Assembly: GCA_037132055.1 (NCBI GenBank)
Contig: JBAXPX010000002.1
Location: forward strand, 1-53,132
Origin: a bacterium
GTDB taxonomy: Bacteria; Patescibacteriota; Minisyncoccia; Phycocordibacterales; UBA9973
Direction of reading: 5' to 3'
DNA: 53,132 bases
The position numbers were made by a program, and so were the translations under genes. Under the pieces are notes generated by a model that had not been told where the DNA came from, made no database searches, and saw only the letters and a program-made list of their open reading frames with translations. Shown piece by piece: positions 7,673 through 47,100 of the stretch (within the stretch, counting starts at the first letter, position 1; each line of letters opens with the position of its first letter).

Positions 7673-8200
7673 ATGTTCACTGATCCGATTAAAAATTTAA
7701 AAGCGTTCGGACTTCGAGACGATATGGTTGTAGCAGATTTGGGTGCAGGAACTGGATTTTATTCTATAGCAGCAGCACAGATGGTGCCAAGGGGAAAAGT
7801 TTATGCAATAGAAATAATAAAAGATTTTTTAACTAGTATTAAAAATAAAGCCAAAGAAGCCCATTTGAACAATATGGAGTGTTTTTGGGGCAACATAGAA
7901 AAGATCGGAGGGACACAAATAAAAGATAAAGTTGTAGATGCAGTTATCGCTTCGAATATACTTTTTCAAGTTGAAAACAAAGATAAATTTATTGATGAGG
8001 CAAAAAGAATTTTAAAACCAGATGGCAAAATGCTCCTTATTGATTGGTCTGATGACATATCATCTATTGGAGCATCTTTAGATAAATCAATTTCAGAGAA
8101 GCAAGCACGAGAAATGTTTGAGAGAAAAGGTTTTACATTAGACAGAGAAATAGATGCGGGGAATCATCATTATGGAATGATTTTAAAAAACAGCAAATAA
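7673..8200 (+). CDS. Class I SAM-dependent methyltransferase
   Basis: Motif I VADLGAGTGFYS; post-I acidic E; LKPDGKMLLIDW. Confidence 0.75.
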   Translation: MFTDPIKNLKAFGLRDDMVVADLGAGTGFYSIAAAQMVPRGKVYAIEIIKDFLTSIKNKAKEAHLNNMECFWGNIEKIGGTQIKDKVVDAVIASNILFQVENKDKFIDEAKRILKPDGKMLLIDWSDDISSIGASLDKSISEKQAREMFERKGFTLDREIDAGNHHYGMILKNSK

Positions 8201-8201
8201 A

Positions 8202-9494
8202 ATGAAAGGAAATTTTCAAATTATAATCATTGTTATATTCATCGCAGCAGCTATTTTTGGTATTTTGGTTTTTTCTGGAACTATTCCGATAGGTAATAAA
8301 AATAATTCTAATGCTCAAGGCACAGTAGTAATTTGGGGTACAGCGAAAAGTGATGCAGTTTCTTTGGCTCTAGAGAATTTTAATCGTTCGAATAAAACGT
8401 TTATCGTGAAATATGTTCAAAAATTTCCAGAGACTTTTGATCAAGATTTATTAGAAGCTCTCGCCTCAGGGGTTGGTCCTGATATGTTTTTTTTATCTGA
8501 GGATTTAGCCTTCAAATACAGCAATAAAATATACACGATACCATATCAAAGCTTTCCGCTTGCTTCATTTAAAAATACTTTTGCAGGAGCGGGAGAAATA
8601 TTTTTGACATCAAAAGGTATTTTAGCTTTTCCAATATCTGTAGATCCACTAATGATGTATTATAACCGCAGTATTTTAGATGCCAATTCCATTATATATC
8701 CTCCAGTTTATTGGGATGAATTTGCCGATTTGGTACCTATTTTAACAAAAAGAGATGAGTCTGGAAAAATTATTCAAAGTACCGTAGCAATGGGACAATT
8801 TTCAAATATTTTTAATGCAAAAGACATAATTTCTACTTTATTTATGCAAGTTGGCAATCCTATAGTTTCTGAAAAAAATGGATTTTTTTCGTCTGTTTTG
8901 GGTGAAAGTAGCTCAAGTTATAATCTGGCAAATACTTTAAAGTTTTACACGAATTTTGCTGATCCGCTTCAGAGCGTTTATTCATGGAATAAATCATTAG
9001 CGAATTCTAGGGATGCTTTTAGTGCAGAGAAGTTAGCATTTTATTTTGGCTATGCAAGTGAGTTGCCGTCATTGATAAGTAAAAATCCAAATCAAAATTT
9101 TCTAGTTGCGTCTATGCCACAAATAAGAAATAGTAAATTTAAATTAACTTCTGGTCATGTCACTGGTATCGCCATATCTTCTTTTTCTAAAAATTTTAAC
9201 ACGGCTTTTACCGCAGCGAGCCTGATGTCAACAGGGGACTTTGCTTCTAAGTTTGCTGAAGTTGTAAATAGTACTCCAGCGAGACGTGATTTACTTGCAG
9301 TAAAAAAGACAGACGCATTTGCTCCCATTTTTTATGCCTCTACTTTATATGCAAAGAGCTGGCTCGATCCTTCTTCGTCAGACACTGACAATATATTTCG
9401 TGTTATGGTTGATGGTGTACTTTCGAACAACATGTCTACGGAAAATGCCGTAAAAGATGCCAGTGGTAAACTAAATTTATTGTTTATTAAATAA
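8202..9494 (+). CDS. Membrane-anchored extracellular solute-binding-protein-like protein
   Basis: N-terminal TM helix. The overall size and motifs (VVIWGT..., DMFFLSEDL..., PISVDPLMMYYN) resemble ABC-type sugar-binding proteins. No permease or ATPase gene is adjacent. Confidence 0.5.
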   Translation: MKGNFQIIIIVIFIAAAIFGILVFSGTIPIGNKNNSNAQGTVVIWGTAKSDAVSLALENFNRSNKTFIVKYVQKFPETFDQDLLEALASGVGPDMFFLSEDLAFKYSNKIYTIPYQSFPLASFKNTFAGAGEIFLTSKGILAFPISVDPLMMYYNRSILDANSIIYPPVYWDEFADLVPILTKRDESGKIIQSTVAMGQFSNIFNAKDIISTLFMQVGNPIVSEKNGFFSSVLGESSSSYNLANTLKFYTNFADPLQSVYSWNKSLANSRDAFSAEKLAFYFGYASELPSLISKNPNQNFLVASMPQIRNSKFKLTSGHVTGIAISSFSKNFNTAFTAASLMSTGDFASKFAEVVNSTPARRDLLAVKKTDAFAPIFYASTLYAKSWLDPSSSDTDNIFRVMVDGVLSNNMSTENAVKDASGKLNLLFIK

Positions 9495-9496
9495 TT

Positions 9497-9964
9497 ATGC
9501 ATAAGACGACATTTTTAAATAAAAATAAAAAAAATACAGCAGGACTATTATTTTTTGTTTTTTTATTTTCGATTTTAATTTACCCGATTTCTTCTTTTGC
9601 AGAACCAAGCAATTTGATTCCTTGTGGTACAGAGAAAACTCCTTTTGAAATGAAAGATGGCAAACAAGTAGGTGGAGAGATAATAAATCCTTGCGAAAAA
9701 AATGGTATTAAATATTTATTGGAAATGGTGAATAAAGTTATTCATTTTATTCTTTTTACTCTAGCTGTACCTATAGCTGCCATACTCTTTGCTTATGCTG
9801 GTTTTATGCTTATAACATCTGGTGGTGAAGTTGGTAAAAAGAAAAAAGCACTGGGTGTTTTCTGGCATGTGGGGTTAGGTTTGGTTATAGTTATTGCTTC
9901 TTGGCTTATTATAAGTACGATATTGTCTATTTTGGGATACAATGGTTCTTGGATAGGATTTTAA
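9497..9964 (+). CDS. VirB2/TrbC-like (type IV secretion pilin-like) small membrane protein, paralog 1
   Basis: Signal peptide (...ISSFA/EP), a Cys pair, then two hydrophobic helices separated by a charged loop (SGGEVGKKKKA). Confidence 0.6.
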   Translation: MHKTTFLNKNKKNTAGLLFFVFLFSILIYPISSFAEPSNLIPCGTEKTPFEMKDGKQVGGEIINPCEKNGIKYLLEMVNKVIHFILFTLAVPIAAILFAYAGFMLITSGGEVGKKKKALGVFWHVGLGLVIVIASWLIISTILSILGYNGSWIGF

Positions 9965-9990
9965 AATAGTGTATAATTTTCAGATCTCTT

Positions 9991-10386
9991 ATGATTAAGA
10001 CTAAATTTATAAATTGGACAAATTATTTTAATAAGAAATCATACATTGTTTCTGTATTTATTGTAGGTATCTTTTTGCCATTTATTTTTGTTTTTGCTCA
10101 AGGAGAGTCATGTGATCCTGGCTTGGGGAAGATTTGTAATCCAATAAGTGCTACGTCTATAACAGAATTAATAAGAACCATCTTGGAAGGGGTTGTAAAA
10201 ATAGGTATTCCCGTTATCGCTCTCGCTATAATTTATTGTGGTTTCCTTTTTGTTCAAGCCAGAGGAAAGCCAGGTGAGATCGAAAGAGCAAGGAATTCAT
10301 TGATTTATACATTGCTTGGGGCAGCGATAATACTTGGGGCATGGGCAATAGCTCAACTTATAACCGAAACAGTTCTCGCATTATAA
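9991..10386 (+). CDS. VirB2/TrbC-like pilin-like protein, paralog 2
   Basis: Signal peptide (...FVFA/QG), a Cys pair, and helix-loop(ARGKPGEIERAR)-helix topology. Confidence 0.6.
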   Translation: MIKTKFINWTNYFNKKSYIVSVFIVGIFLPFIFVFAQGESCDPGLGKICNPISATSITELIRTILEGVVKIGIPVIALAIIYCGFLFVQARGKPGEIERARNSLIYTLLGAAIILGAWAIAQLITETVLAL

Positions 10387-10401
10387 ATTAACTTTATTTT
10401 T

Positions 10402-10698
10402 ATGTTATGTACATTAGCGACTAATCCAAAACTTCAGAATCTCATAGGTTATGTGACCTGTATTATTAATAGTTCTGTTATTCCACTTATTTTAGCTTTA
10501 GCTATAGTCATGTTTGTCTGGGGAGTCGTACAATATGTTATAAATGATGCAGAAGAAGCTAAAAAAGAGAAGGGTAGAATGTTTATGTTATGGGGGATTA
10601 TAGGTATTACTGTTATGGTTTCAGTTTGGGGCTTGGTTGCAATTGTGGGCAATACTTTCAACCTAAATACGACTTTTGTTCCACAATTAAAACAATAG
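10402..10698 (+). CDS. VirB2/TrbC-like pilin-like protein, paralog 3
   Basis: Shares the core VWGVVQYVI..AEEAKKEKGR.FMLWGIIGI.VMVSVWGLV with paralog 4. Confidence 0.6.
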   Translation: MLCTLATNPKLQNLIGYVTCIINSSVIPLILALAIVMFVWGVVQYVINDAEEAKKEKGRMFMLWGIIGITVMVSVWGLVAIVGNTFNLNTTFVPQLKQ

Positions 10699-10722
10699 TT
10701 TGTTTTTTTTTATATTTACATA

Positions 10723-10731
10723 TGGTATAAT
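10723..10731 (+). promoter_or_regulatory. Extended -10 promoter element (TGgTATAAT) ahead of pilin paralog 4
   Basis: The sequence tggtataat lies in the 133-nt gap between paralogs 3 and 4. Confidence 0.35.
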
Positions 10732-10831
10732 TGTCGCATAGTTCTTTTTAAAAAGTTAGTATTATTAATATTATTAGGTCGTTTTTTAAGGTTTTATTAT
10801 TAGTTTTCTCGCTTATGGCGGGATAAAAATT

Positions 10832-11227
10832 ATGAAAAAGCAATTAATCGTATTATCAAGTTTAGGATTAGTATTAGCACCACTTTTTGTATTTGCTCAA
10901 AACTTTGCACAATGTGGCAGCACTCAGATGGGGATTGGAGCAGTTTTATGTAAAATTGCATCTATACTAAATACAATTATACCTATAATAGTTGTCTTGG
11001 GTGTTGTGTATTTTGTTTGGGGAGTTGTGCAATATGTCATCTCAAGTGATGAAGAAGCAAAGAAAACAGGCAGGATGCGAATGCTTTATGGAATAATCGG
11101 ACTTGTTGTTATTGTTGGTATGTGGGGTCTTGTAAGAATAGTAACGAATACTTTTGATCTAAATAACACACAACAGGGACTTAATCCTCCTTGTGTTACG
11201 GGCACACCAGGGTGTATGCCACAATAG
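10832..11227 (+). CDS. VirB2/TrbC-like pilin-like protein, paralog 4
   Basis: Signal peptide (...FVFA/QN), Cys pair, VWGVVQYVISSDEEAKKTGRMRMLYGIIGL core, and a Cys-containing C-terminal tail. Confidence 0.6.
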   Translation: MKKQLIVLSSLGLVLAPLFVFAQNFAQCGSTQMGIGAVLCKIASILNTIIPIIVVLGVVYFVWGVVQYVISSDEEAKKTGRMRMLYGIIGLVVIVGMWGLVRIVTNTFDLNNTQQGLNPPCVTGTPGCMPQ

Positions 11228-11233
11228 TTTATT

Positions 11234-11566
11234 ATGGATTTATTCTTTACAAACGTAGCTTATGCTAGCGTCGATACTGTGATCGCGAGTATTAATAGGC
11301 AGATAATAAATCCTCTTATTTTATTGCTTTTTGCTCTCGCACTTGTTTATTTTCTTTATGGGGTGTTTGAGTTTATTGCAAATCAGTCAAGCGAAGAGAG
11401 CAAAACGGATGGCAAAAAACACATGATATGGGGAATTATAGGTATTACTATTATGATGGGAGTGTTTTCAATTATGAATATAATTATAAACACTCTTAAT
11501 ATAGAAGGTATAAATCCAGAACAAGGAACAGTTCGGCTAAATGAATACGATCCGCCTACGCGTTAG
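11234..11566 (+). CDS. VirB2/TrbC-like pilin-like protein, paralog 5
   Basis: Same helix-loop-helix core (LYGVFEFIANQSSEESKTDGKKHMIWGIIGITIMMG). Confidence 0.55.
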   Translation: MDLFFTNVAYASVDTVIASINRQIINPLILLLFALALVYFLYGVFEFIANQSSEESKTDGKKHMIWGIIGITIMMGVFSIMNIIINTLNIEGINPEQGTVRLNEYDPPTR

Positions 11567-11592
11567 TCTTTACTGAATGTATTATAAAACAG

Positions 11593-11620
11593 ATCCCCTA
11601 CAAGAGGGGATTTTGTTTTT
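11593..11620 (+). terminator. Rho-independent terminator after the pilin array
   Basis: Hairpin atcccct-acaag-aggggat followed by ttttgttttt. Confidence 0.65.
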
Positions 11621-11679: not shown

Positions 11680-12168
11680 CTACCAATAGTTGTAAATTTC
11701 AACTCCGAGAGTTTTAGATTCTTCGGGGTAAAAGATGTACACCCCGTCTGGTTGGTACCCAACGTATTTATATACCCCGGGTTTAAAAATGAAAGTCATA
11801 TTATCAGGGGTTTTCATTTTTACGTTACCTCCCCTTGGGTAACATTTCCACCCAGCCTTTAAATAGACTGTGAACCCCTTTCCTCCTTCGAAAGGAAAAT
11901 ACTTAGGGATCTTTTGTTTTTGGGGAGGTGGACACAGTCTAATGACTGTGTTTTCCTCGCCGGAACCTTCACGGCTATCTGATGATGGGGGCAGGGAAAT
12001 AAATATCAGCCCCAAAATCAAAAGAACTCCCAGCCACACGAACCGGCGGTATCCGTGTGTAAAAAAATTCTGTACGCCACGTGCTCTTCTGCGAGCACTT
12101 TCAACCAGCCATATGATTATATTGCTTAATATAATCACACAGATGATAAAAATAAAAATATTGATCAT
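11680..12168 (-). CDS. Hypothetical N-terminally anchored protein
   Basis: 162 aa with two hydrophobic segments near the N-terminus and an aromatic-rich C-terminal domain. No family recognised. Confidence 0.45.
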   Translation of the reverse strand: MINIFIFIICVIILSNIIIWLVESARRRARGVQNFFTHGYRRFVWLGVLLILGLIFISLPPSSDSREGSGEENTVIRLCPPPQKQKIPKYFPFEGGKGFTVYLKAGWKCYPRGGNVKMKTPDNMTFIFKPGVYKYVGYQPDGVYIFYPEESKTLGVEIYNYW

Positions 12169-12276: not shown

Positions 12277-12780
12277 TTAAGCGTGCTTTAGTGGTTTGGC
12301 TTTATATTTATCACCTACATAGATTTTTCTCCATAATATTATTATAAATAAAATCAATATTAAGACGAAAAACCACTGAAGAAAGGTTGATGGCATAAAC
12401 CCATTTGAACCAAATAAGGCATTGGCAGATAAATCATATTTAGAATTCTCGGTTGAATTATCGCTTGAATTGTCAGTATTTTTTGATACGGTTATGTTTT
12501 TTGTTTTTGTTGTAGTGTTTGTTTTTGTAGTATTATTTTGTTGAGCAGTATGATAATTGTAATAATCTCGCATTGTAGTATTTATATTTCCACAACCTAC
12601 GAAATTGCCATAATTATCTAAGTCAGTTTCACAACCTATATAATTTCCATTTACCCAACCAACGTAATAATAAGCGCTAGCATTGTTTGGCAGAGAGTAA
12701 AAGGCCAAAAAAGTGAATAGAATTAGGCCAGAAAATATTAAATTGTTTTTTATATTTTTCATACCCTCATAGTATAGCAT
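12277..12780 (-). CDS. Hypothetical secreted protein with Asn/Thr-rich low-complexity linker and C-terminal TM helix
   Basis: Signal-like N-terminus (...NNASA/YYY), NNTTKTNTTTKTKN tract, and C-terminal helix FFVLILILFIIILW. Confidence 0.45.
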   Translation of the reverse strand: MLYYEGMKNIKNNLIFSGLILFTFLAFYSLPNNASAYYYVGWVNGNYIGCETDLDNYGNFVGCGNINTTMRDYYNYHTAQQNNTTKTNTTTKTKNITVSKNTDNSSDNSTENSKYDLSANALFGSNGFMPSTFLQWFFVLILILFIIILWRKIYVGDKYKAKPLKHA

Positions 12781-21224: not shown

Positions 21225-23852
21225 ATGAAATGGTTGCGTCATATTCTTTTGAAGAATAAAGATGGAGAAAAAGAAATAAGCTCTCGTCAAAAAGAACTTT
21301 TTGATAAATTGTTGGAGTTTGCAAAAAACGATCCAGATTTTGCACTAAGCAAACTAAGCTCCCAAATAAATGGTTTAAAAAAAGAAGAAGCAAAAAAGAG
21401 AATAAAAATATTTGGTTTTAATGATATTGCTGATGAGAAAAAAACTAATCACCTTTTAAGATTGTTAATAATTTTAAAAAATCCATTAAATTTATTACTT
21501 GGAACACTGGCAGTAATATCTTTATTCGTAGGTGACACAAAAGCTTTTATCATTATCATTGTAATGGTGTTGCTTAGTGTAATTCTAAATTTTTATCAAG
21601 AAACAAAAGCAGACATTGCTGCTGATAAACTAAAATCTATAATTCATGCGAGAGTTACGGTTATAAGAGATGGAATAAAATCCGAGATTCTATTGAGAGA
21701 GGTTGTTCCGGGAGACATTGTTTTCTTATATTCGGGGACAATAATTCCTGGAGACGTGAGAATAATAACTTCAAAAGATTTGTTTATAAACCAAGCTACT
21801 CTTACTGGCGAATCTTTGCCAGTAGAAAAACATGTTGTTGATTCTAATTTAGAAAACAAAAGCGTAATAGAGCTTTGTAATTTATGTTTTTTTGGTTCAA
21901 GCGTAGAGAGTGGGTTGGCACAGGCTATTGTTTTGAGTACTGGGAGAAATACTTATTTAGGTAGTATTGCTTCTGATATAAATAAAAACGATCATGTTTC
22001 TGATTTTAGTAAAGAGTTAAAAAAGTTTGTTCTTTTGATTCTCAAGTTTATGTTATTTATGGTTCCGGCAGTTTTCTTTTTAAATGGAATTTTTAAGGGA
22101 GATTGGTTTCAGGCATTTTTATTTGCGCTTGCTGTAGCTGTTGGAATTGCACCTGAGATGATACCTACTATTGTTGCTGTTAATTTATCAAAAGGGGCTT
22201 TGGCATTATCAAAAAATAAAGTGATTGTAAAACACTTAGACTCGATAGAAAATCTAGGAGTGATGGATGTTTTGTGTACAGACAAAACTGGGACTTTGAC
22301 TGAAGGGAAAATTGTTTTGGAAAAACACTTAGATATCAATGGCAACGAAAGCTTATCATCACTACATTATGCATTTTTAAATAGTTATTTTCAAACAGGG
22401 TTAAGTGACATAATAGATGAAGCTATTTTAAAACACGAAGAAGCAAAGGAAAAATTAGAAATAGAAAGTTACCAAAAAATTGACGAAATTCCTTTTGACT
22501 ACAACAGGAGAAAAATGTCAGTAATTGTATCAAACAACATAGATAAACATTTGTTTATTTGCAAGGGAGCAGTAGAAGAGATTTTTGACGCTTGTACAAA
22601 TGTTCTGATAGATGGAAAGGTTGTTTCCCTTAAAGATTTTAAAGAAGAAAATAAAATTGTTATAGAAAAAAAATTAAACGAAGAAGGTTTTCGAGTTATA
22701 GCAATAGCATATAAAGAAGTCGAAAAAGATAAAAAAGCTTTTACGATTGATGATGAAAAAGGGCTCACCTTTGTTGGTTTTTTAGCTTTCTTTGATCCAC
22801 CAAAACAAAGTGCTGCCGAAACAATTAAGGATTTAAATACACTAGGTGTAAATGTTAAAATTTTGACAGGTGACAATGACATTGTGACGAAAAAGATATG
22901 TGAAGAAGTCGGAATGAAATTCGACAAGATTCTTTTAGGTAAAGATATGGAAAAGATGAACGATGAAGAATTAGAGAAAGAAGTAGAATCAATATCAGTT
23001 TTTGCAAAACTTTCTCCTTATGATAAGGAAAGAATTATAAAAATTTTACGTAAAAATGGTCACGTTGTTGGTTTTCTCGGTGATGGTATAAATGATTCTC
23101 TTTCGCTTATTGCGGCAGACGTAGGTATTTCTGTCGACACTGCAGCGGATATAGCAAAGGAGTCTTCAGATATGATTTTGCTTGAAAAGAGTTTGCATGT
23201 TTTAAAAGAAGGGATAAAAGAAGGAAGAAGAATTTTTGACAATATTATTAAATATATAAAAATGTCAGCAAGTTCAAATTTTGGAAACATATTTAGTATT
23301 ACTGGTTCTAGTATTTTTCTACCCTTTTTACCTATGTTGCCTTTGCAGATTTTAACGAACAATATCCTTTACGATTTTTCGCAGATGACTATTCCTACAG
23401 ATAAAGTTGACGAAGAGAGATTGCTTAAACCTAAAAAATGGGATTTCAAACATATCAAAAGATTTATTTTATTTTTTGGTCCAATAAATTCATTATTTGA
23501 TTATGCTTTCTTTTTTATTATGCTTTACATATTTAACGCTTGGGGGAATCCCGCTCTTTTTCATACTGGTTTTTTTGTAGAAAATATAGTAATGCAAACT
23601 TTTATTGTGCATATTATTAGAACAAGCAAGATTCCGTTTTTCCAAAGCTGGGCATCGAAGTCACTTATTATTTCCACAATATGTATAATTGCAATTGGAA
23701 TTTATTTACCGTTTTCACCATTCGCTTCCGCATTTCAATTTTTACCATTACCACCACTTTATTTTGTCTTCTTGTTTGTTGGAATAATTTTATATTTCTT
23801 AATAACTCAATTCTTAAAAATGTGGTTCATAAAAAAATATGAGTGGATCTAA
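21225..23852 (+). CDS. mgtA: Magnesium-translocating P-type ATPase (MgtA-like)
   Basis: LTGESLPVEK, phosphorylation site CTDKTGTLT, TGDN, GDGINDS; 875 aa with the MgtA-type N-terminal region. Confidence 0.8.
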   Translation: MKWLRHILLKNKDGEKEISSRQKELFDKLLEFAKNDPDFALSKLSSQINGLKKEEAKKRIKIFGFNDIADEKKTNHLLRLLIILKNPLNLLLGTLAVISLFVGDTKAFIIIIVMVLLSVILNFYQETKADIAADKLKSIIHARVTVIRDGIKSEILLREVVPGDIVFLYSGTIIPGDVRIITSKDLFINQATLTGESLPVEKHVVDSNLENKSVIELCNLCFFGSSVESGLAQAIVLSTGRNTYLGSIASDINKNDHVSDFSKELKKFVLLILKFMLFMVPAVFFLNGIFKGDWFQAFLFALAVAVGIAPEMIPTIVAVNLSKGALALSKNKVIVKHLDSIENLGVMDVLCTDKTGTLTEGKIVLEKHLDINGNESLSSLHYAFLNSYFQTGLSDIIDEAILKHEEAKEKLEIESYQKIDEIPFDYNRRKMSVIVSNNIDKHLFICKGAVEEIFDACTNVLIDGKVVSLKDFKEENKIVIEKKLNEEGFRVIAIAYKEVEKDKKAFTIDDEKGLTFVGFLAFFDPPKQSAAETIKDLNTLGVNVKILTGDNDIVTKKICEEVGMKFDKILLGKDMEKMNDEELEKEVESISVFAKLSPYDKERIIKILRKNGHVVGFLGDGINDSLSLIAADVGISVDTAADIAKESSDMILLEKSLHVLKEGIKEGRRIFDNIIKYIKMSASSNFGNIFSITGSSIFLPFLPMLPLQILTNNILYDFSQMTIPTDKVDEERLLKPKKWDFKHIKRFILFFGPINSLFDYAFFFIMLYIFNAWGNPALFHTGFFVENIVMQTFIVHIIRTSKIPFFQSWASKSLIISTICIIAIGIYLPFSPFASAFQFLPLPPLYFVFLFVGIILYFLITQFLKMWFIKKYEWI

Positions 23853-23896
23853 ACTTCTTCATGAAACGTTCATAGATTTAATTTATATTGTATAAT

Positions 23897-25201
23897 ATGA
23901 TGATGAAAATCAGGAAGAATTTGCCGTTGATTGTTATAATAATTTTGGCTTGGATTCCTATTAAAATATGGTTTTCTATGGAGCCCGTGTCTATTCGTTT
24001 TTTTGATTTAAATTCTACAATGACGAGTTTGGGACAAATCACTGGGCTATTGGGGATGATTTTATTTTCTATCAATTTAATTCTGAGTAATAGATCTCAT
24101 TTTTTTGATAAATTTTTTTCTGGGTTACATATTTTTTATGATCATCATAAATGGCTTGGAGCCGTTTCTTTTTCCCTACTTTTATTTCATCCACTTTTTT
24201 TAGTTGTAAAATATATTACTATTTCGATAAATAGTGCAGCATTGTTTTTGTTGCCAGGAACAAATTTTGCAATTACTATGGGAATAATTGCGCTTGGCTT
24301 AATGATTATACTTCTAGTAGCTACTCTTTATATGAAGATCAAGTATCATATTTGGAGATTTTCACATAAGTTTATGGTTGTAGTTTTTATATTTGCAATT
24401 TTACACACTTTATTTATTTCAAGCGACGTATCGAATAATATGTTTTTGAGATATTATATTTTTGTCTTTGCGATTTTAGGGCTTATCTCGGGTGCTTATA
24501 GATCATTTTTTCGAGTTTTCTTTAACAAAGATCATGAATTTAAAGTTGTGGGCATAAATACGCCAAGTGATAATGTCACTGAAATAGAAATAGAACCGAG
24601 AAATTCAAAAATGGAGTTTTTTCCAGGACAGTTTATCTTTATAAGATTTGTTGAAGTTGGAGTTAGCTCCGAGCCGCATCCTTTTTCTATCACTTCCACA
24701 AAAGGAGATAAGAATTTAAAAATAGTAATTAAATCATTGGGAGATTACACTAGTAAAATTGGAAACTTGAGACCTGGAGCAATTGCAAAAGTTGAGGGAC
24801 CGTTTGGTAGTTTTTTTAAAAATCGGGATATTTCCAAAAAAGAAATTTGGATTGGAGGTGGAGTAGGCATTACACCGTTTTTAAGTCTTGCTAGAAGTTT
24901 GAAGAATGTAAGAAATGATATTTATTTGTTTTATTGTTTAAACGACACAACTGAAGCTGTATTCTTGAAAGAATTGACGTCCATATCCGTTACTAATAGT
25001 AGGTTCCACTTAATAACTTGGTATGCCAAAGAGAAAGGGTGGATAAATGCAGATAAGATAAAAGAATTAACCAATGGTGTTTCTGATGCATATATTTATA
25101 TTTGCGGACCACTTTCGTTTATGAGAGCTCTAAAAGAACAATTTATAGAAAAAGGAGTCGATAAGAATAATATTAATTTTGAAGAATTTAACTTTTTATA
25201 A
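23897..25201 (+). CDS. Ferric-reductase-domain flavocytochrome (NOX/FRE-like: 6-TM bis-heme domain + FAD + NAD(P)H domains)
   Basis: His pairs HKWLGAVSFSLLLFH and HKFMVVVFIFAILH in TM helices; FAD motif HPFSITS; NAD(P)H motif GGGVGITPF; C-terminal ICGP. ATG at 23897 is preferred over TTG at 23888. Confidence 0.75.
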   Translation: MMMKIRKNLPLIVIIILAWIPIKIWFSMEPVSIRFFDLNSTMTSLGQITGLLGMILFSINLILSNRSHFFDKFFSGLHIFYDHHKWLGAVSFSLLLFHPLFLVVKYITISINSAALFLLPGTNFAITMGIIALGLMIILLVATLYMKIKYHIWRFSHKFMVVVFIFAILHTLFISSDVSNNMFLRYYIFVFAILGLISGAYRSFFRVFFNKDHEFKVVGINTPSDNVTEIEIEPRNSKMEFFPGQFIFIRFVEVGVSSEPHPFSITSTKGDKNLKIVIKSLGDYTSKIGNLRPGAIAKVEGPFGSFFKNRDISKKEIWIGGGVGITPFLSLARSLKNVRNDIYLFYCLNDTTEAVFLKELTSISVTNSRFHLITWYAKEKGWINADKIKELTNGVSDAYIYICGPLSFMRALKEQFIEKGVDKNNINFEEFNFL

Positions 25202-25202
25202 T

Positions 25203-26090
25203 ATGAAAAAACTAACAGGAATTTCTTTGTTTATATTTTTTTGTGTTATGACTGCAATTTTGACTGCGGGCCTTGTTTTTTATCAAGACAATAAAAATAA
25301 TAATTTAAATACAGGATTAACGAATCAAAATAAAACAGCAGATATTACAAATTTACTATCTTCTGGAATTACTGTTTTAGATTCCAAAGAAATAGCTAAA
25401 CATAATACAAATGCGAATTGCTGGATTATTGTTAACAGTAAGGTTTATGATATTTCAAACTATGCCTCTGCTCATCCTGGTGGAACAAGAAGCATTTTAG
25501 ACTACTGTGGAAAAGAAGCAACGGTTGCTTTTGATACAAAAGGAGGAAAGGGAAATTCTCATTCTACGTCTGCGAATAATTTACTAGCGCAGTATTATAT
25601 TGGAAATTTAAACCAAAAACTTAGCCAGAATACATTAAATCAGAATGTTCAAAATGCAAAATCTAATTCAAATAATTCCAATAACTCAAATAATAATTTG
25701 AATAATAATGTAAATAATCCAACACCAACACCACCACCTGTCGGGAATGTTGTATTGAATTCTCAGGAAGTTGCAAAACATAATACGGTTTCTGATTGCT
25801 GGATGATTATAAATAACAAGGTTTATAATCTTTCTGATTATGCGGGAGCTCACCCAGGTGGAACACAAAATATTACAAACTATTGTGGCAAGGAAGCAAC
25901 TGTTGCTTTTGATACAAAGGGGGGTGTAGGCAATCCACACTCCACTTCTGCTAATAATTTGTTGGCCCAGTATTACATCGGAGATTTAAATCAAAATATT
26001 AGTCAAAATACATTAAATCAAACTATTCAAAACACTCAACTAAATCCTCCCCCACAAAATAATAGGGGTGGAGATGGGGAAGACGATTAG
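25203..26090 (+). CDS. N-terminally anchored protein with two tandem cytochrome b5-like heme-binding domains
   Basis: Two copies of ...VAKHNT...CW.I.N.KVY..S.YA.AHPGG......CGKEATVAFDTKGG.GN.HSTSANNLLAQYYIG.LNQ, separated by an Asn/Ser/Pro-rich linker. ATG at 25203 follows directly after the upstream stop. Confidence 0.7.
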   Translation: MKKLTGISLFIFFCVMTAILTAGLVFYQDNKNNNLNTGLTNQNKTADITNLLSSGITVLDSKEIAKHNTNANCWIIVNSKVYDISNYASAHPGGTRSILDYCGKEATVAFDTKGGKGNSHSTSANNLLAQYYIGNLNQKLSQNTLNQNVQNAKSNSNNSNNSNNNLNNNVNNPTPTPPPVGNVVLNSQEVAKHNTVSDCWMIINNKVYNLSDYAGAHPGGTQNITNYCGKEATVAFDTKGGVGNPHSTSANNLLAQYYIGDLNQNISQNTLNQTIQNTQLNPPPQNNRGGDGEDD

Positions 26091-29159: not shown

Positions 29160-30440
29160 ATGGCTGACCCATTGTTTAGTTTTATTTGGAGTATAATATC
29201 ATTTTTATTACCCTATGTTGCAGTAGTGATTCTTTGTGTTGTTGCTTGGAAATTCTGGCTTCATTATATTCAGCAAAATTTTATAGCTGGAATAGAGTGG
29301 GTTTTACTTGAAATAGTTCCTCCGCGCGATGTTTTGAGATCCCCAAAGGGAATGGAGCTCTTTATAACAAATGCTCTCTATCATTGGAGTATGAAAGGAG
29401 GAAAAGAAGAATACTGGCAAGGAGCAGTTTGGTTTTGGTTTTCTCTTGAAATTGCATCTATTGACGGGCAGGTACATTTTTATGTGCGTACTCCTTCTCG
29501 TTTAAAAAGCTTAATCGAAACACAGATGTATGCACAGTATCCCCAAGCTCAAGTAAAAGTAGTAGAAGATTATACCTTGGCTGTCGATGAAATTTCACCA
29601 AGTAGTACTTGGAATGGTTGGGGGTGTGAATTTAAATTAAAAAATCCTCAAGCCTTCCCGATAAAAACTTATGTTGACTATGGACTAGACAAAGATCCAA
29701 AAGAAGAACAGAAAGTCGATCCTATTTCCTCAGTCATAGAACTTTTTGGTTCTATACAAAAAGGAGAGCAAATGTGGATGCAAATAGTAGTTACTCCTTC
29801 AAAAAAAGAATATCACACAAAAGGAACCTTTTTTGGCCATCATGATTGGGTAGAAGAATCAAAACTTCAGATAAACAAATTATTGAAACCTTATACCAGT
29901 GTCAAGGATGAAGGGGCAAGGATAGAAGTACGTGTTCCTTCATTTGTTGAACCAGTAATAAAAGGAGCTACTGCAAAAATGCAAAAACTCGGCTTTGATA
30001 CTGGCATTAGGATTTTTTATGTTGCTAAAAAAGAAGCCTTCAGTATGAACAATCGACGAAATATCCGATTGATTTTTAGACAATACGCTAATCCATTTTC
30101 GAATGAACTTATGCGTCATAATTCTACACAAGCTGATGCCTATGGTGGATATTTTACAATTTCTCCCAAGGTAGTCATGTTGTTAGCTGATAGAATGCTT
30201 CATGAATACAGAGAAAGAGCGTTTTTTCATCTCCCAATGCGACATAATATTTTTAATACGCACAATGTTTTTTGGCCGTTTTCTCTTTTCTTTCATGCGT
30301 ATCATCATCCAGAGAACTTTGTTTTAAACGTAGAAGAGCTTGCCACTCTATGGCACTTCCCAGGCCAAATCCTAAAAGTGCCTACTCTTGAACGTATCGA
30401 GTCCAAAGAAGCTGCTCCACCTACGAATTTACCGACCTAA
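29160..30440 (+). CDS. Conserved hypothetical N-terminally anchored protein
   Basis: TM helix, then WVLLEIVPPRDVLRSPKGMELF...FSLEIASIDGQVHFYVRTP...AQYPQAQV... and C-terminal EELATLWHFPG. Family name not recalled with certainty. Confidence 0.45.
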   Translation: MADPLFSFIWSIISFLLPYVAVVILCVVAWKFWLHYIQQNFIAGIEWVLLEIVPPRDVLRSPKGMELFITNALYHWSMKGGKEEYWQGAVWFWFSLEIASIDGQVHFYVRTPSRLKSLIETQMYAQYPQAQVKVVEDYTLAVDEISPSSTWNGWGCEFKLKNPQAFPIKTYVDYGLDKDPKEEQKVDPISSVIELFGSIQKGEQMWMQIVVTPSKKEYHTKGTFFGHHDWVEESKLQINKLLKPYTSVKDEGARIEVRVPSFVEPVIKGATAKMQKLGFDTGIRIFYVAKKEAFSMNNRRNIRLIFRQYANPFSNELMRHNSTQADAYGGYFTISPKVVMLLADRMLHEYRERAFFHLPMRHNIFNTHNVFWPFSLFFHAYHHPENFVLNVEELATLWHFPGQILKVPTLERIESKEAAPPTNLPT

Positions 30441-35553: not shown

Positions 35554-36726
35554 ATGGGAATTTTTTCTAAACAAAAAGAAGAATCAAAACTGGCGTTGGT
35601 TTTTGATCTAGGGTCTTCTTCTGTTAGTGGTGCACTTTTTTGGATGAAAAGAGATGGTGCGCCACAGATTATCTTCTCTATTCGTGAACCAATAGTTCTA
35701 GAAGAAAAAATTGATTTTAACAAATTCTTATCTGAAACTCTAAAAACACTAGAAATAGTAGCAAGTAAAGCAAGCATATCGGGGCTCGGTGCTCCAACGA
35801 AGTTTTTTTGCGTATTATCGTCACCGTGGTATTCTTCTCAAGTTAGAAATATTTCTCTTAAAAAAAATACTCCGTTTATTTTTACTTCGAAACTTGCAGA
35901 TGAATTAATACAAAAGGAGAGTAGTCTCTTTAAAGAAGAATATTTGAAGAACGAACAAAGTGAAAATCAAGTTCGCCCGATAGAACTTAGAAATATGAGG
36001 ACTATGCTGAATGGTTATGCTACAAGTAAGCCATTAAATCAGAAAACAAAAGACATAGAAATGGCTGTTTTTGTATCGATGAGCCCTGAAAAAGTCTTGA
36101 TTGGGATAGAGGATATAGTAGAGAAACACTTTCATCAGAGAGATGTTAAATTCTCTTCTTTTGTTCTGGCGTCATTTACGGTTGCTCGCGATATGTTTAT
36201 ACATCAAGATAATTTTTCTTTAGTTGATATCGGTGGAGAAATCACAGAGATATCTTTAGTCAAAAAAGATGCTTTGTGTTCGTCGTCTTCTTTTCCGATA
36301 GGCTACAATTATTTTGTTCGTGAATTGTCAGCCAGATTAAAATGTTCTCTCGATGAAGCAAAATCTTACATTTCTCTCTATAACGACAATCATGCATCCG
36401 TAACTACAGAAAAAAAACTTAAACCAATTATTGAAAAATTAAAGTTAGAGTGGCTTGCACAATTTCAAAAAGCCTTGGTATTTCTGTCGAACGATATTTC
36501 TGTTTCCTCTACTATTTTTATGACAGTTGACGAAGAATTAGCAGAATTTTTTGCTGAAACAATTAAAAACGAACAATTCAACCAATATGCTTTTACTGAA
36601 TCAAAATTTAGAGTTGTATATTTAGGTACTCAAATGCTCCATGGTATAGCTGAATATAAAAAGGATATAAAACATGATTCTTTTATTACTATTGAGTCTA
36701 TTTATATAAATCATTTTTTAGGATAA
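35554..36726 (+). CDS. Actin-fold ATPase-like protein (FtsA/PilM-like)
   Basis: Phosphate-1-like LVFDLGSSSVSGAL and phosphate-2-like LVDIGGEITEISLV; 390 aa. Confidence 0.4.
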   Translation: MGIFSKQKEESKLALVFDLGSSSVSGALFWMKRDGAPQIIFSIREPIVLEEKIDFNKFLSETLKTLEIVASKASISGLGAPTKFFCVLSSPWYSSQVRNISLKKNTPFIFTSKLADELIQKESSLFKEEYLKNEQSENQVRPIELRNMRTMLNGYATSKPLNQKTKDIEMAVFVSMSPEKVLIGIEDIVEKHFHQRDVKFSSFVLASFTVARDMFIHQDNFSLVDIGGEITEISLVKKDALCSSSSFPIGYNYFVRELSARLKCSLDEAKSYISLYNDNHASVTTEKKLKPIIEKLKLEWLAQFQKALVFLSNDISVSSTIFMTVDEELAEFFAETIKNEQFNQYAFTESKFRVVYLGTQMLHGIAEYKKDIKHDSFITIESIYINHFLG

Positions 36727-36735
36727 GATATATTT

Positions 36736-38016
36736 ATGTCGAGAAATTTACTTCAGGATATAAAAAAAGTAAACAAAATAAAGAAGGACACAACTCCTAG
36801 GAAAATTTATATTCCTTCTGACATTCCTAAAATTGTTAATACAAATACAAACAACAAATATTCTTTAGAAGAAAACAAGACAGATGGAAATCATTACAAA
36901 CTTTGGATTGTGGCATTGGTTTCTGTAATTTTTCTTTTCTTTGCTCTGTCCTTTTTATTTTCCAAGGCGACTATTACGGTTAATCCAAAAATAAAAACAA
37001 TATCTCTAAACGAAGATTTGTCTGCTGTTAAAAATTCAAATACTGACAAGTTGCCTTTTGATCTTATGGTCATTTCAGATCAAGAAACAAAAACAATATT
37101 GGGCGGAGAAGAAAAAGATTTAAAAGAAAACGCGAACGGTAAAGTTGTACTTTATAATAATTTTAGTTCTTCACCACAACCACTTCTGATAGACACACGA
37201 CTGGAAGGGTCAAATGGGAAAATTTATAAAACAAAAACAAAAATTGTAATTCCTGGGATAAATAAAGACGGGGTTCCTGGTAAAGTTAGTGTAGATATAT
37301 ATGCTTTAGATCCGGGGATTGAATACAATAGTCCACCCATTGATTTTAAAATATTTGGTTTTAAGGGATCACCCAAATACTCAAAATTTTATGGCAGGTC
37401 TGTTGGAGAAATAACTGGTGGGTTTGTTGGTAAATCTAAACAGATTAGTGATAACCAAAAACAAAATACAGAAAAAGAATTAGAAAATAATTTGAAAACG
37501 AAACTCTTTGGCAAAGCAGCGAGTCAGATTCCGGAAGGGTTCATACTCTTTAAAGATGCTACCTTTCTAAATGTAGACGATACTAGTGCTAGTCCAGTGT
37601 CAGCTGATGGTTCTATCACTTTGACTGTCAAAGGTACGCTTTACGGGTTTGTTTTTAATGAAAAAAAATTAACAGACAAAATTGTTAAATATCTTATCCC
37701 AGACTACGATGGGAGTGAAGTATATATATCAAATATTAAAGATTTAACCTTTGAACTTTCCAACAAGGAGAGCATGGCGTTTGCTAGTGTTACAGATATA
37801 AATTTCAATATTTATGGTGTACCAAAAATTGTATATAAACTTGATGGAACCAAGTTGGCCACAAGTCTAGCTGGGAAAAGCAAAAAGGATTTTAATCAGA
37901 TACTATCTCAGTATCCAAACATAGACTCTGCTTCATCAGTTATCAGACCCGTATGGAAATCATCTTTTCCAGACAAGAGTAATAAGATAAAAATCACTAT
38001 AAATTACCCCAAATAA
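36736..38016 (+). CDS. Hypothetical bitopic membrane protein with a large extracytoplasmic domain
   Basis: About 55-aa basic cytoplasmic N-terminus (MSRNLLQDIKK...), one TM (LWIVALVSVIFLFFALSFLF), and an external domain of about 350 aa. Confidence 0.4.
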   Translation: MSRNLLQDIKKVNKIKKDTTPRKIYIPSDIPKIVNTNTNNKYSLEENKTDGNHYKLWIVALVSVIFLFFALSFLFSKATITVNPKIKTISLNEDLSAVKNSNTDKLPFDLMVISDQETKTILGGEEKDLKENANGKVVLYNNFSSSPQPLLIDTRLEGSNGKIYKTKTKIVIPGINKDGVPGKVSVDIYALDPGIEYNSPPIDFKIFGFKGSPKYSKFYGRSVGEITGGFVGKSKQISDNQKQNTEKELENNLKTKLFGKAASQIPEGFILFKDATFLNVDDTSASPVSADGSITLTVKGTLYGFVFNEKKLTDKIVKYLIPDYDGSEVYISNIKDLTFELSNKESMAFASVTDINFNIYGVPKIVYKLDGTKLATSLAGKSKKDFNQILSQYPNIDSASSVIRPVWKSSFPDKSNKIKITINYPK

Positions 38017-43089: not shown

Positions 43090-43761
43090 ATGTCTATAAG
43101 AAAAATAAATTTTGTAGAGGGGGAATATTATCATATTTATAATCGGGGTAATAGTAAACAAAAAATTTTTAATGACAAAGAAGATTATTTAAGATTTATT
43201 TCTTTACTTTATATTTCTAATTCAAATGAAGGATTTAGATTTTTTAACACATCTAGAAATATGAGTATCTATGAAATAGATAAAGGTAGTCCTTTAGTTA
43301 GTATTGGAGCGTATTGTTTAATGCCAAATCATTTTCATATATTAATAACTCAAAAAAAGAAAAATGGTATCAGTCAATTTATGCAAAAATTAAGTACCGG
43401 ATATTCAATGTACTATAATAAAAAATATGAAAGGACTGGCAGTCTTTTTGAAGGTAAATTCAAATCACAGCATTTAGGTACAGATAAATATTTAAAATAT
43501 TTGTTTTCTTACATTCATTTGAATCCAGTAAAATTAATTCAAAACGACTGGAAGGAGAAGGGGATTAAAAATAAAAAAGATGTTATTGATTATTTAGAGA
43601 AGTATTCTTATTCAAGTTATTTAGATTATTTAAATTTTGAATCAAAAAGGCCAGAGTTCAATATATTGACTCCAAATTTTTTCCCAGAATATTTCCCAAC
43701 AAAAGATAAATTTCAAAAAGAAATCTTTGAATGGCTTTCATATGACATTATGCAAAGTTGA
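43090..43761 (+). CDS. REP-associated tyrosine transposase (RAYT) / IS200-like Y1 HUH transposase
   Basis: YHIYNRGN, YCLMPNHFHILI (HUH = HFH), and catalytic Tyr region YIHLNPV; 223 aa. Confidence 0.85.
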   Translation: MSIRKINFVEGEYYHIYNRGNSKQKIFNDKEDYLRFISLLYISNSNEGFRFFNTSRNMSIYEIDKGSPLVSIGAYCLMPNHFHILITQKKKNGISQFMQKLSTGYSMYYNKKYERTGSLFEGKFKSQHLGTDKYLKYLFSYIHLNPVKLIQNDWKEKGIKNKKDVIDYLEKYSYSSYLDYLNFESKRPEFNILTPNFFPEYFPTKDKFQKEIFEWLSYDIMQS

Positions 43762-44117: not shown

Positions 44118-47100
44118 ATGAGAAAATTTCTCCAAAGAATAATTAAAAAGTTCAGAAGTTCTAATATTTGGCTTATAGATAAAAAGAATCTGAGTTCTTT
44201 TTATCGTATTCGTGTCCGTGATAAAAAAATCATTACAAATTTTAAAATTACTAACTTAAAAAATCAATTAACAATTAAATATAAAATTATGCCCAGCATC
44301 ATTTCACTAAATCAAATGAAAAACTTATTAAAAAAAATAAATAAAGAAAGAAAAAATATTTTTTTCTTTTTAAAACAAATTAAGAAAATAAAAAGAACAC
44401 AGCTTGTCGGACTTGTTTTGATTTTTTCAGTAGTTTCTTTTTTTTATAATCCAAAACCAGTTCATGCTGCTTGTGCTCTTTCTGGAACCATAGCTACGAG
44501 TTACAACTGGGCAGGTTGTGCCGGAGAAGCGACCATCAGCGGTAGTGTGACTTTCGCAGCAGGAACTCATAATCTAGGTGCTACTAATTTGACCATCAAC
44601 AGTGGTGGGACACTTATCCCTGCGCCTTCTAGTACTACTGTAAATGGTGCGACGGGAGTGACAATAAACACTACCGGGAATATTACAGTGGCTTCTGGTG
44701 GAACTATCAATGGAAATGGCCAAGGATACACTGGAAGAAGTTATGCTTCTGGTAGTCCACTTGGTCAGGGCTATGGTGAAGGTGGTGGAACAAGAGGTTA
44801 TTATGGTGGAGCTGGTGGAGCTCATGGTGGAGCTGGTGGAAAAGGAAATGCTAGTAGTGTGAGAAATACAACTACTTATGGTAGTGCAACTAATCCAGTT
44901 AGCTTGGGTTCTGCTTCAGGGGCATCGAATGGTACTAACATATTCAATCCTGGTGGTGGAGCAATAAAATTAAATGCATCGGGAACTGTCACTATCAACG
45001 GAACAGTTTCTGCTAATGGAAATTCGGGGACTGGAACAAGTGCTGGTGGAGCGGGAGGAAGTGTTTGGATAGTTGCTGGGACTTTGACGGGTTCTAATTC
45101 GGCAACTATTTCGGCTAATGGTGGAGATGGAGCAGGAACTTATAGTACTAATGCTGGTGGAGGAGGTGGAGGAGGAAGAATTAGTTTACAAACTTCTGGC
45201 ACAGATACTTATGCTGGATCAATAATAGTTGAAGGAGGTTTGGGGCTAGAAGGAGGAGAAGCAGGGACACTAGAGAGAACTGTTGGAACTCCGGGTGATA
45301 TTATTATTGCAGCTGGGAGTACTGTTACTTGGACAAGGGGTGAACACACTTTTCATGATTTAACAATTCAATCAACTGGTGTCCTTACGACCGGTGAAGC
45401 TGAAGCTGCAGGAGGAGGCAATAATTCCAATGGCCCATTTATTGGTGGAGGACCTGGTCCCGGATTAAGTGGTGATAAGGGTGGAGGTGGTGGAGGGCAC
45501 GTTGGAGCTGGTGGAACTGAAGGTGGCGGAACAAGGGCAGGAGTTGGTGGTAGTGCATACAATAGTGATGGACTTCAAGTGACACAGCCAACAGATATGG
45601 GATCAGCTGGTGGAGGTTCTGCGCAAGATGGTCTTGGTAGTTATGGAGGAGGAGCAATAAAATTAACTATAACGGGGACTTTGACAGTAAATGGTAAAAT
45701 TTTAGCTGATGGTCAATCCAATGGAACTAGCGGTGGAGGATCAGGAGGAAGTATTTGGATAAATGCGCCTACGGGCACAGTGAATTCTACCGGTGGAGAA
45801 TTTTCTGCACATGGTGGAGTTGCTGGAACTGGTACAGCCAACAATGGAGGCGGCGGAGGATCAGGAGGAAGAATTGCTTTTAATGCGGGAACAAAAAATC
45901 TCAGTGCTATTACTGTTGACGTCGCAGGTGGTACGGGAGTAAATAATGGTGGAGACGGAACTGTCTCGGGGTTGCTTTATTCATCGATCACTTCTCCAAC
46001 GTCTGCAGCTAGAAATACTTTTACATCAGTAACAGGAACTGCGGCAGACTATAGTGGGGCGACACTTGGTTATGTTGATGTTTCTATTTATAATGGAAGC
46101 CAATATTGGAACGGTTCTAGTTTTAATCAAGCTAGTGAATATTGGTTGAGAGCGACAGGAACTTCTTCTTGGAGTTATGCGGTGAGTGGACTTACGAGTC
46201 CGGGTGTTACCTTGACAGTACACTCGAGAGCGAAATCTGGAAGAGGAGTTGAATCTTTTTTTGAAACACCTGGAACAGGAGTAACTTTTAATTTAGATAC
46301 TGTTGCGCCGACCCTAGCTACTGTCACAGCTATACCAACTGCTACAAATGACAACACTCCAAACTATATTTTTTCTTCCACAGAAGCCGGAACCATAACT
46401 TATGGTGGATCATGTAGTTCTGCCACAACTTCAGCAACATCTGGATCAAATACTGTTACTTTCAATACACTTACTGATGGAACATACAGCAACTGTACAG
46501 TGACAGTTACTGATGCAGCGACAAATGCTTCGTCTGCACTTTCTGTGCCTACGTTTACTGTTGATACAGTTGCGCCTACCGCTCCCATCGCAGTCACATT
46601 TACTGCAACAGGTGGAAATGTTTTAGCAAATACTTTAAATTCTACAAATACAAACTTTACAGCAGGTGCAACTATAACTGCAGCAGATGCAACTGGTGGA
46701 ACAGCAGAACTTTTGAAAGGTGGTGCATCTTTTAGTCCAGCTATAATGGATAGCAGTATTTCTGCTGGAGATACGACTGTGACATTTAACGCAGGACTTG
46801 CAAGTAATGCAGCCGTGCAGACAGCATTTGCAAGTGGAGCAGCACTTTCAGTAAGACTTTGCGACCTCGCAGGAAACTGCACAACGAGTTCTGTATCAAA
46901 CCCTACTATTACTGTCGACTACATAGCACCAACAAATCAAGATTCTGTATTAACGGCAGATGCTATGTTTAGATCGAGTGGCACAGTGACGATAGCAAGC
47001 TCAGGAAATGCTACAAACAATATTTGGATCGCGCCACTTGGCACGACTAGTTTTACAGCAGGTTCTACAATGACGACAGCAGGAGGAACATCTACTACTA

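Follow-up and report, generated by a model that had tools for sequence, protein, structure and literature searches.

VirB2 of the Agrobacterium T-pilus, TrbC of RP4 and TraA of F, the pilins of conjugative type IV secretion systems (T4SSs), combine a small size with a leader peptide and a hydrophobic hairpin of two helices joined by a short charged loop; they act as single major pilins of diderm systems, are encoded beside virB3/virB4, and are in some cases cyclised. The VirB2 paralogues of Anaplasma phagocytophilum and Bartonella are tandemly amplified and divergent, lie sometimes away from the other virB genes, and are thought to be strain-variable for immune evasion. In the class of T4SSs that gave rise to the Patescibacterial VirB4, proteins of similar size and hairpin layout, namely the Mbov_0395 family of Mycoplasma integrative conjugative elements (ICEs; NCBIfam NF045849), pLS20_p028 and PrgF of pCF10, are encoded by one such gene per system. 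Here we describe an array of five consecutive, co-oriented small genes for pilin-like proteins, designated P1 to P5, on the plus strand at positions 9497-11566 of a 53,132-nucleotide stretch of DNA (contig JBAXPX010000002.1 of assembly GCA_037132055.1; the window, in what follows) from a freshwater Candidatus (Ca.) Nomurabacteria bacterium of the class Paceibacteria in the Patescibacteria. The sequence originates from lake-water metagenomes, several samples of which hold identical copies of the array. We consider it probable that the five genes constitute a chromosomal set of five non-redundant VirB2/TrbC-superfamily subunits of the Gram-positive-type Patescibacterial T4SS.

The occurrence of multiple divergent VirB2-like pilins in bacteria of the Candidate Phyla Radiation is already published, and the basic finding of the first reading of this DNA, made from its letters (the sequence-only reading), is a correct rediscovery. 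Quinonero-Coronel et al. (2025; PMC12102498) found VirB2-like pilins in 1948 assemblies, of which 1135 have them near virB4 and 813 do not. In 383 assemblies, chiefly of Microgenomatia and Saccharimonadia, they recorded a total of 441 VirB2 arrays, each with 2-11 genes and on average 25% identical, for which they proposed adaptation to different hosts. The array in the window is like these in its family (PF18895/TrbC), its tandem and strongly divergent paralogues, its chromosomal location and its want of a relaxase, and the published pilin genes too are often apart from virB4; unlike the present account, that survey reports no position-wise orthology and no tandem double, leaderless or ectodomain-bearing members. 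In Ca. Southlakia epibionticum ML1, the pilins of the T4SS cluster, which has no recognisable relaxase or coupling protein, were found by transposon sequencing to be essential for epibiotic growth (Wang 2023; PMC10633639), and a 2025 review counts six divergent VirB2-like pilins in this organism and notes that a monoderm may here be capable of forming pili (PMC12857230). The Southlakia cluster shares with the array several structurally alike, sequence-divergent pilins in a monoderm epibiont with no relaxase nearby, and its six pilins equal the commonest count of pilin domains in the Nomurabacteria array (40/75 loci). It differs in that its pilins lie inside the T4SS cluster and are essential by transposon sequencing, whereas the array in the window stands apart from the core genes, belongs to the class Paceibacteria and is known from sequence alone. 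Structure clusters specific to freshwater are likewise dominated by the PF18895 domain (bioRxiv 10.1101/2025.04.23.650224). What is new here is the core synteny of the array, its position-specific orthologues, its tandem, leaderless and ectodomain-bearing pilins, and its detachment from the secretion motor.

Five pilin-like proteins in tandem

The five open reading frames (ORFs), of 98-155 aa, lie exactly where the sequence-only reading had placed them, with intergenic gaps of 26, 15, 133 and 6 nt between P1-P2, P2-P3, P3-P4 and P4-P5. That reading had likewise seen in each product two hydrophobic helices separated by a Lys/Glu-rich loop: hydropathy brings out two long hydrophobic segments with a short joining loop of this kind in P1 to P5, and AlphaFold models both P4 (helices 35-70 and 74-107, pLDDT 74) and mature P2 (helices 18-55 and 61-94, pLDDT 78) as two-helix hairpins. 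Its further statement, that each protein has a signal peptide ending in FA/(E,Q), stands for three of them. Judged from sequence and hydropathy, a cleavable-looking Sec-type signal peptide with small residues at -3/-1 (S/V-x-A) is found only in P1 (putative cleavage SFA/E), P2 (VFA/Q) and P4 (VFA/Q), and P3 and P5 are without one. The Cys pair that had been described as frequent precedes the first helix in P1-P4, and P5 has no Cys. The class III signal peptide of type IV pilins and type II secretion system pseudopilins (cleaved between G and F/M-x-x-x-E) occurs in none of the five, all of which have two hydrophobic helices rather than one.

Around this common hairpin the five proteins differ in their termini. 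P1 (9497-9964; 155 aa) has a signal peptide ending in SSFA/EP, a short ectodomain with the Cys pair C43 and C66, and a C-terminal pilin hairpin that ends in GSWIGF. P2 (9991-10386; 131 aa) shows the signal peptide VFA/QG, Cys41 and Cys49, an NPI motif and a hairpin closing with the conserved C-terminus ETVLAL. P3 (10402-10698; 98 aa) consists of a single pilin domain, its MLC start standing just ahead of the Cys pair C3 and C20. In P4 (10832-11227; 131 aa) a signal peptide ending in VFA/QN is followed by the Cys pair C28 and C40, a hairpin with the motif VYFVWGVVQYVI...EEAKK, and two further Cys in the tail, C121 and C128. P5 (11234-11566; 110 aa) has no Sec-type signal peptide and no Cys, and both its short N-terminus, MDLFFTNVAYA-S, and its C-terminal NPEQGTV are conserved. 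In BLASTP comparisons P3 and P4 are 61% identical, P3 and P5 43%, and P4 and P5 34%; the remaining pairs align for most of their length at 19-25% identity, match in a short stretch, or do not match at all. The close relation of P3 to P4 was thus rightly noticed in the sequence-only reading, and so was the divergence of P1 and P2, while P5, which it had set among the much more divergent members, is related to P3 and P4.

All five proteins match the Pfam family PF18895 (T4SS_pilin), with E-values of 7e-4 to 1.6e-10. The gathering score of 26.6 bits is exceeded by P2 (41.3), P4 (37.2), P3 (31.8) and P5 (28.9); P1 falls below it both as a whole (20.1 bits) and for its C-terminal 112 aa (22.6 bits). 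The weak cases are settled by orthologue sets from related genomes, which match PF18895 and TrbC: among the orthologues of P1, PF18895 is matched in 30 of 30 (best E 2.7e-12) and TrbC in 17 of 30, and profile-profile comparison with hhalign relates the P1 set to the P2 set with a probability of 97% (E 3e-11) and the P5 set to the P2 set with a probability of 93% (E 3e-7). The P2 orthologues match both PF18895 and the TrbC/VirB2 model PF04956 in 26 of 26 cases (E <= 0.01; best TrbC E 8.5e-11), and by its sequence P2 is the most canonical TrbC/VirB2-like member of the array. Among the window proteins themselves, PF04956 is matched by P2 (23.9 bits), P4 (17.5) and P1 (14.3), in each case below its gathering score of 27.9 bits, and has no match in P3 or P5; their profile scores hence point to a superfamily relation with TrbC/VirB2 rather than membership. 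In this, in forming a five-member set and in having two leaderless members, they are unlike VirB2, TrbC and TraA. With these qualifications the profile searches bear out the earlier assignment, and by their sequences the five proteins belong to the pilin-like PF18895 family of the VirB2/TrbC superfamily. As one Pfam family is matched by all five and the same array recurs in 79 other genomes, the ORFs are real and mutually homologous, not products of chance.

Synteny and position-specific orthology

A profile search returned 1552 homologues, the best of which are two-domain proteins of 230-260 aa named 'pilin' from Ca. Paceibacterota/Nomurabacteria. Look-ups of three homologues, followed by one scan of species-representative genomes, yielded 79 related loci, all of them in metagenome-assembled genomes of Ca. 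Nomurabacteria/Paceibacterota. Mapping of these loci by ORFs and BLASTP revealed a near-constant gene order: S1-LactB-GyrA, a methyltransferase (MTase), a solute-binding-like protein (SBP), five pilin positions that we term A to E, a convergent small ORF, and then RbfA-IF2-DUF4446-...-ClpB. The array is a core, syntenic locus of Ca. Nomurabacteria/Paceibacteria, which had not been described before.

Best matches between loci run from position to position, such that P1-P5 correspond one-to-one with A-E and each position forms its own orthologous group. The identity to relatives is 40-44% for P1, 48-68% for P2, 59-69% for P3 (measured against the second domain of the C protein), 55-64% for P4 and 60-70% for P5, and over the orthologue sets it spans 46-70% for P4 and 53-80% for P5. 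The median identity to the window orthologue over all loci is 44-62% for the pilins, 64% for the SBP and the MTase and 84% for GyrA. Orthologues at the same position (40-70%) are therefore, as far as sequence identity tells and in a comparison made here for the first time, more alike than most paralogues within the array (19-25%). Each of several positions also bears motifs of its own, such as the WIGF end of A, the TVLAL end of B, and the MDLF..AYA-S start and NPEQGTV of E.

Against this constancy, position C is the variable one: it encodes a tandem double pilin in most genomes and a single domain in others, sometimes with an extra gene, with the result that complete arrays hold 5, 6 or 7 pilin domains in total (20, 40 and 15 arrays, respectively). 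The tandem double pilin, of 220-285 aa, has one signal peptide and two complete PF18895 hairpins connected by a linker of 25-30 aa (e.g. L007:10001-10756 and L009:10001-10726), which makes it a covalent pilin dimer. P3 aligns at 59-69% identity with residues ~143-240 of this protein, and corresponds to the second half of the dimer, encoded as a leaderless gene. A leaderless single-domain form of position C, of 95-116 aa, is present in eight further loci (L015, L019, L025, L033, L035, L038, L040 and L086), and the MLCTL start of P3 is common to at least eight species at 59-79% identity; this recurrence indicates that P3 is a maintained gene and not debris. Split genes had been suspected for P2/P3 and P4/P5, since each pair lies in one frame with a single stop between its members. 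A split P4/P5 is ruled out by the separate D and E genes of all relatives, and a fresh nonsense mutation as the origin of P3 by the leaderless single-domain form in at least eight species.

Position A varies in another manner, its length in relatives ranging from 122 to 743 aa. The long forms place Big_7, Fn3, TSP1 or InlB-B-repeat-like ectodomains ahead of the pilin hairpin (L022:6798-9029, L044:7280-9133, L046:1857-3098 and L033:8299-8994 are examples), and the accounts of Patescibacterial pilins cited here make no mention of such pilin-anchored display domains.

Between strains the array does not vary: in those from six other samples the pilin genes are identical (100%). Compared with the same-species contig L002, all 137 of 137 coding substitutions fall in one 639-nt gene, the glucosaminidase-like ORF at 2337-2975, 7 kb upstream of the pilins, which differs at 21% of its sites between the contigs; a further 69 differing alignment columns are intergenic (region 2105-2975), and no difference occurs in the 9.5 kb that follow, within which all five pilin genes lie. 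Such a pattern reflects a boundary of recombination or else a chimeric assembly.

A proposed set of specialised secretion subunits and its rivals

The sequence-only reading found no VirB4, VirD4, VirB6 or relaxase in the window, and this holds for the domains of every window ORF of at least 90 aa. No T4SS gene appears in the 6 kb further upstream, as far as SecA and Mur ligases, that are covered by a 19-kb same-species contig, such that no T4SS ATPase or core gene occurs from -16 to +41 kb of the array; nor does a T4SS ATPase or other core gene occur within ±10 kb of it in the 79 related loci. Hence, the array does not belong to a mating-pair-formation (MPF) cluster beside virB3/virB4. Six Nomurabacteria genomes with this array are listed as VirB4-positive (PMC12102498 Table S1). 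For one of them, GCA_000991415.1 (locus L033), whose array has the same five-gene form as that of the window, the published annotation places a pilin at coding sequence (CDS) 292, VirB4 at 294, TrsD at 295, VirB3 at 296 and VirB6 at 298, and records a 'VirB2' at CDS 551 and a 'FATA_PrgF' at CDS 554 (88% coverage), both flagged as not near VirB4 (PMC12102498 Table S3). The offset of +3 between these two equals the offset from B to E in the consecutive protein accessions of the array, and CDS 551 and 554 are thus most likely its genes B and E. About 250 CDS then lie between the core cluster and the array, as counted by CDS numbers, which follow annotation order across scaffolds. If this identification is correct, the core machine is encoded elsewhere with an extra pilin of its own; the filters of the survey probably picked up no more than two of the five genes, leaving this type of array absent from the 441 reported ones, and such hidden Markov model filters probably under-count arrays of this kind in Paceibacteria. 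In Moranbacteria, which are also Paceibacteria, runs of pilin genes flank VirB4 (PMC12102498 Table S3), which makes the detachment of the array from the motor a lineage-specific feature.

Patescibacteria, which live on other cells, have the first T4SS that was shown to be essential to the growth of the very bacterium encoding it. What part many pilin paralogues play in it is a question for which this locus offers a clean comparative handle: it is fixed and position-specific in about 75 species, detached from the motor, and composed of subunit types that are easily told apart as canonical, tandem-domain, leaderless and ectodomain-bearing. As every position is kept separately, the subunits probably differ in role, and the position-wise orthology, the position motifs, the variable ectodomain of A, the covalent double C, the leaderless C and E, and the identity between strains together argue for a division of labour.

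On the analogy of VirB2, TraA and TrbC, each protein would be embedded in the cytoplasmic membrane so that both its ends face outward and its short charged loop inward. Sec and signal peptidase would serve to insert P1, P2 and P4, whose leaderless partners P3 and P5 would enter by translocation of their short N-terminal tails. A machine of VirB4, TrsD, VirB3 and VirB6 encoded elsewhere might pull the subunits from the membrane, whereupon they would stack into a surface filament or an envelope-spanning conduit contacting the host cell. B and/or C/D could furnish the bulk subunits, E and the leaderless C minor or initiating ones, and A a display or tip subunit, likely the one that contacts the host, with an ectodomain that varies between species. 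In its fullest form, this proposal pictures a heteromeric VirB2-type filament or conduit of 5-7 specialised pilin domains, with a double pilin, leaderless subunits and an Ig/Fn3-displaying subunit, encoded apart from its ATPase and co-transcribed with an orphan SBP; we offer so specific a picture only tentatively. Were it true, the heteromeric filament would stand to T4SSs as minor-pilin complexes stand to type IV pili.

Several observations weigh against this interpretation. A pilus model does not explain why an orphan SBP and a methyltransferase are so tightly linked to the array, and the link between the array and a T4SS is drawn from relatives and published tables rather than from the organism's own genome. 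Foldseek comparison of the P4 and P2 models with the PDB gave best E-values of 0.38 and 4.9 and matched no pilin, although simple two-helix hairpins rarely score in such searches, and profiles of the C/D and B alignments, run against PDB sequences, likewise retrieved no solved pilin; the likeness of the modelled fold to VirB2 is accordingly asserted from topology only. The outward topology of P3 and P5 is an assumption, since both are leaderless. No RNA runs holding the locus were found, and to our knowledge a filament has been seen in no Patescibacterium.

A serious rival, if on balance an unlikely one, is that the five proteins are membrane-resident parts of a monoderm T4SS channel and not of an extended pilus, akin to PrgF of pCF10, pLS20_p028 and the Mbov_0395 family, which work without a pilus. 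Relatives of the C/D type (double-domain) match the Mycoplasma ICE family of 'pilin-like conjugal transfer proteins', NF045849, in 69 of 69 cases (best E 1e-19), along with pLS20_p028 in 25/69 and IncI1 TraQ in 43/69, and all five window proteins match NF045849 at 18.9-35.9 bits (35.9 for P4), below its cut-off of 40 bits. The likely gene E of GCA_000991415.1 carries the label FATA_PrgF in the published table, pCF10 PrgF has the same leaderless two-helix layout, and Patescibacterial VirB4 groups with the pilus-less MPF-FATA class. Yet an alignment of the E set with the single pCF10 PrgF sequence is not significant (hhalign probability 1.4%), the full B set matches the diderm TrbC/VirB2 family, and the signal peptide followed by a Cys-pair segment in three members, like the large Ig/Fn3 ectodomains of A, points to exposure outside the membrane. 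The profile similarity of C/D to the Mycoplasma ICE and pLS20 proteins also bears on the question, raised in the published survey, of whether Patescibacteria co-opted their pilins from diderms (PMC12102498): it hints at a monoderm origin, in which case these 'pilins' would be ancestral to monoderm T4SSs and not borrowed.

A second rival makes the paralogues a variation device, in which interchangeable major pilins are alternated or mixed to change surface specificity, be it for host range or for escape from phages or host defences. The idea was put forward for the VirB2 paralogues known from Anaplasma and Bartonella, which the array resembles in its tandem, divergent virB2-like genes and their separation from other virB genes. 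For Patescibacteria it has been suggested by Quinonero-Coronel et al. (PMC12102498), and the changes between species in the ectodomain and length of A and in the one, two or three domains or extra genes of C would agree with it. Unlike the variable families of those pathogens, however, the paralogues of the window are position-specific, far older than the species that carry them, and identical between strains whose DNA 7 kb upstream differs so strongly; the orthologous groups have their own motifs and a median identity of 44-62%, and no switching repeats or cassettes are seen. One-to-one orthologues kept in about 75 species and genes identical between strains do not fit antigenic variation, and we regard such a device as decidedly improbable. 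Of the two explanations offered by the sequence-only reading, antigenic or host-range variation and a heteropolymer, the evidence favours the latter, in the form of a heteromeric or specialised set of subunits.

The least supported alternative, a T4SS-independent membrane module formed with the co-transcribed SBP and methyltransferase, for example for uptake or sensing, would account for the distance from any T4SS gene, the gap medians of 5-15 nt across MTase-SBP-A-B-C in about 75 genomes and an SBP that lacks a permease partner in the window, but it is very unlikely given that the whole 20-kb neighbourhood is syntenic in the clade, so that adjacency weighs little, that the family is tied to virB4 clusters elsewhere (the VirB4-flanking runs of Moranbacteria, the 1135 assemblies of PMC12102498 and the essential Southlakia pilins of PMC10633639), and that no transporter family scores above threshold for the window proteins.

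Probable transcription units and neighbouring genes

Directly upstream of the array lies the membrane-anchored solute-binding-like protein (SBP_bac_1; 8202-9494, plus strand; 430 aa), which matches PF01547 (E 1.4e-13) and begins with a hydrophobic anchor (residues 1-32). Its stop codon and the start of P1 are 2 nt apart. In 76-77 related loci a gene for it likewise stands ahead of the array, the median gap being 5 nt, and no ABC permease or ATPase partner for it is encoded in the window. It is preceded in turn by a class I S-adenosylmethionine-dependent methyltransferase (7673-8200, plus strand; 175 aa; Pfam and NCBIfam methyltransferase matches), which keeps this place before the SBP in 74 related loci, at a median distance of 6.5 nt, and is probably the first gene of an MTase-SBP-A-B-C transcription unit. 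The gap between C and D (10699-10831; 133 nt) is the only long one in the array, with a median of 122 nt over 78 loci as against 5-15 nt for all others (MTase-SBP-A-B-C and D-E); promoter-like hexamer pairs at 10687-10716, 10715-10742 and 10747-10774 accompany it, and a second transcription unit, D-E, may begin here. Between P5 and the convergent ORF at 11680-12168, a G+C-rich hairpin with a T-run on both strands (11591-11613 on the plus strand, 11611-11593 on the minus strand) is likely, from its sequence, to be a bidirectional terminator that closes the array.

The anchored SBP upstream and the two small secreted proteins and four tRNAs downstream, which the sequence-only reading had pointed out, are all present, the two proteins being encoded by convergent ORFs on the minus strand. 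One of these, at 12277-12780 (167 aa), is not the orphan that it was taken for: 64 related loci encode a homologue of it in the corresponding place. Its N-terminus is signal-like, its middle part rich in Asn and Thr, and its C-terminal anchor ends in KHA. The other, at 11680-12168 (162 aa), has counterparts in only five related loci.

The rest of the window is given over to housekeeping genes (a MurC-like ligase, S1, GyrA, RbfA, IF-2, ClpB, BipA, AlaRS, ribosomal proteins, RpoA and GrpE), among which a few others stand out. Two 426-aa ORFs, at 29160-30440 and 35554-38016, have no Pfam or NCBIfam match and each a single N-terminal hydrophobic segment. They were considered as hidden parts of a T4SS, and nothing ties either to one; the second follows a weak FtsA/PilM-like gene and may thus belong to a divergent module for type IV pili or for division. 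The region 21225-26090, the lowest in G+C of the window (0.30-0.31), encodes a P-type cation ATPase, an FAD/NAD protein resembling ferric reductases and another that has two cytochrome b5 domains, which are unusual cargo for a Patescibacterium thought to be without respiration. At the far end, an ORF of more than 3005 aa (44118-53132, plus strand) runs past the end of the window; it has a G+C of 0.40-0.42 against about 0.33 elsewhere, lies just downstream of an IS200-like Y1 transposase gene (region 43090-43761), contains Ig-like, Big_12/13, Fn3-associated and Calx-beta domains, and probably encodes a giant surface protein.

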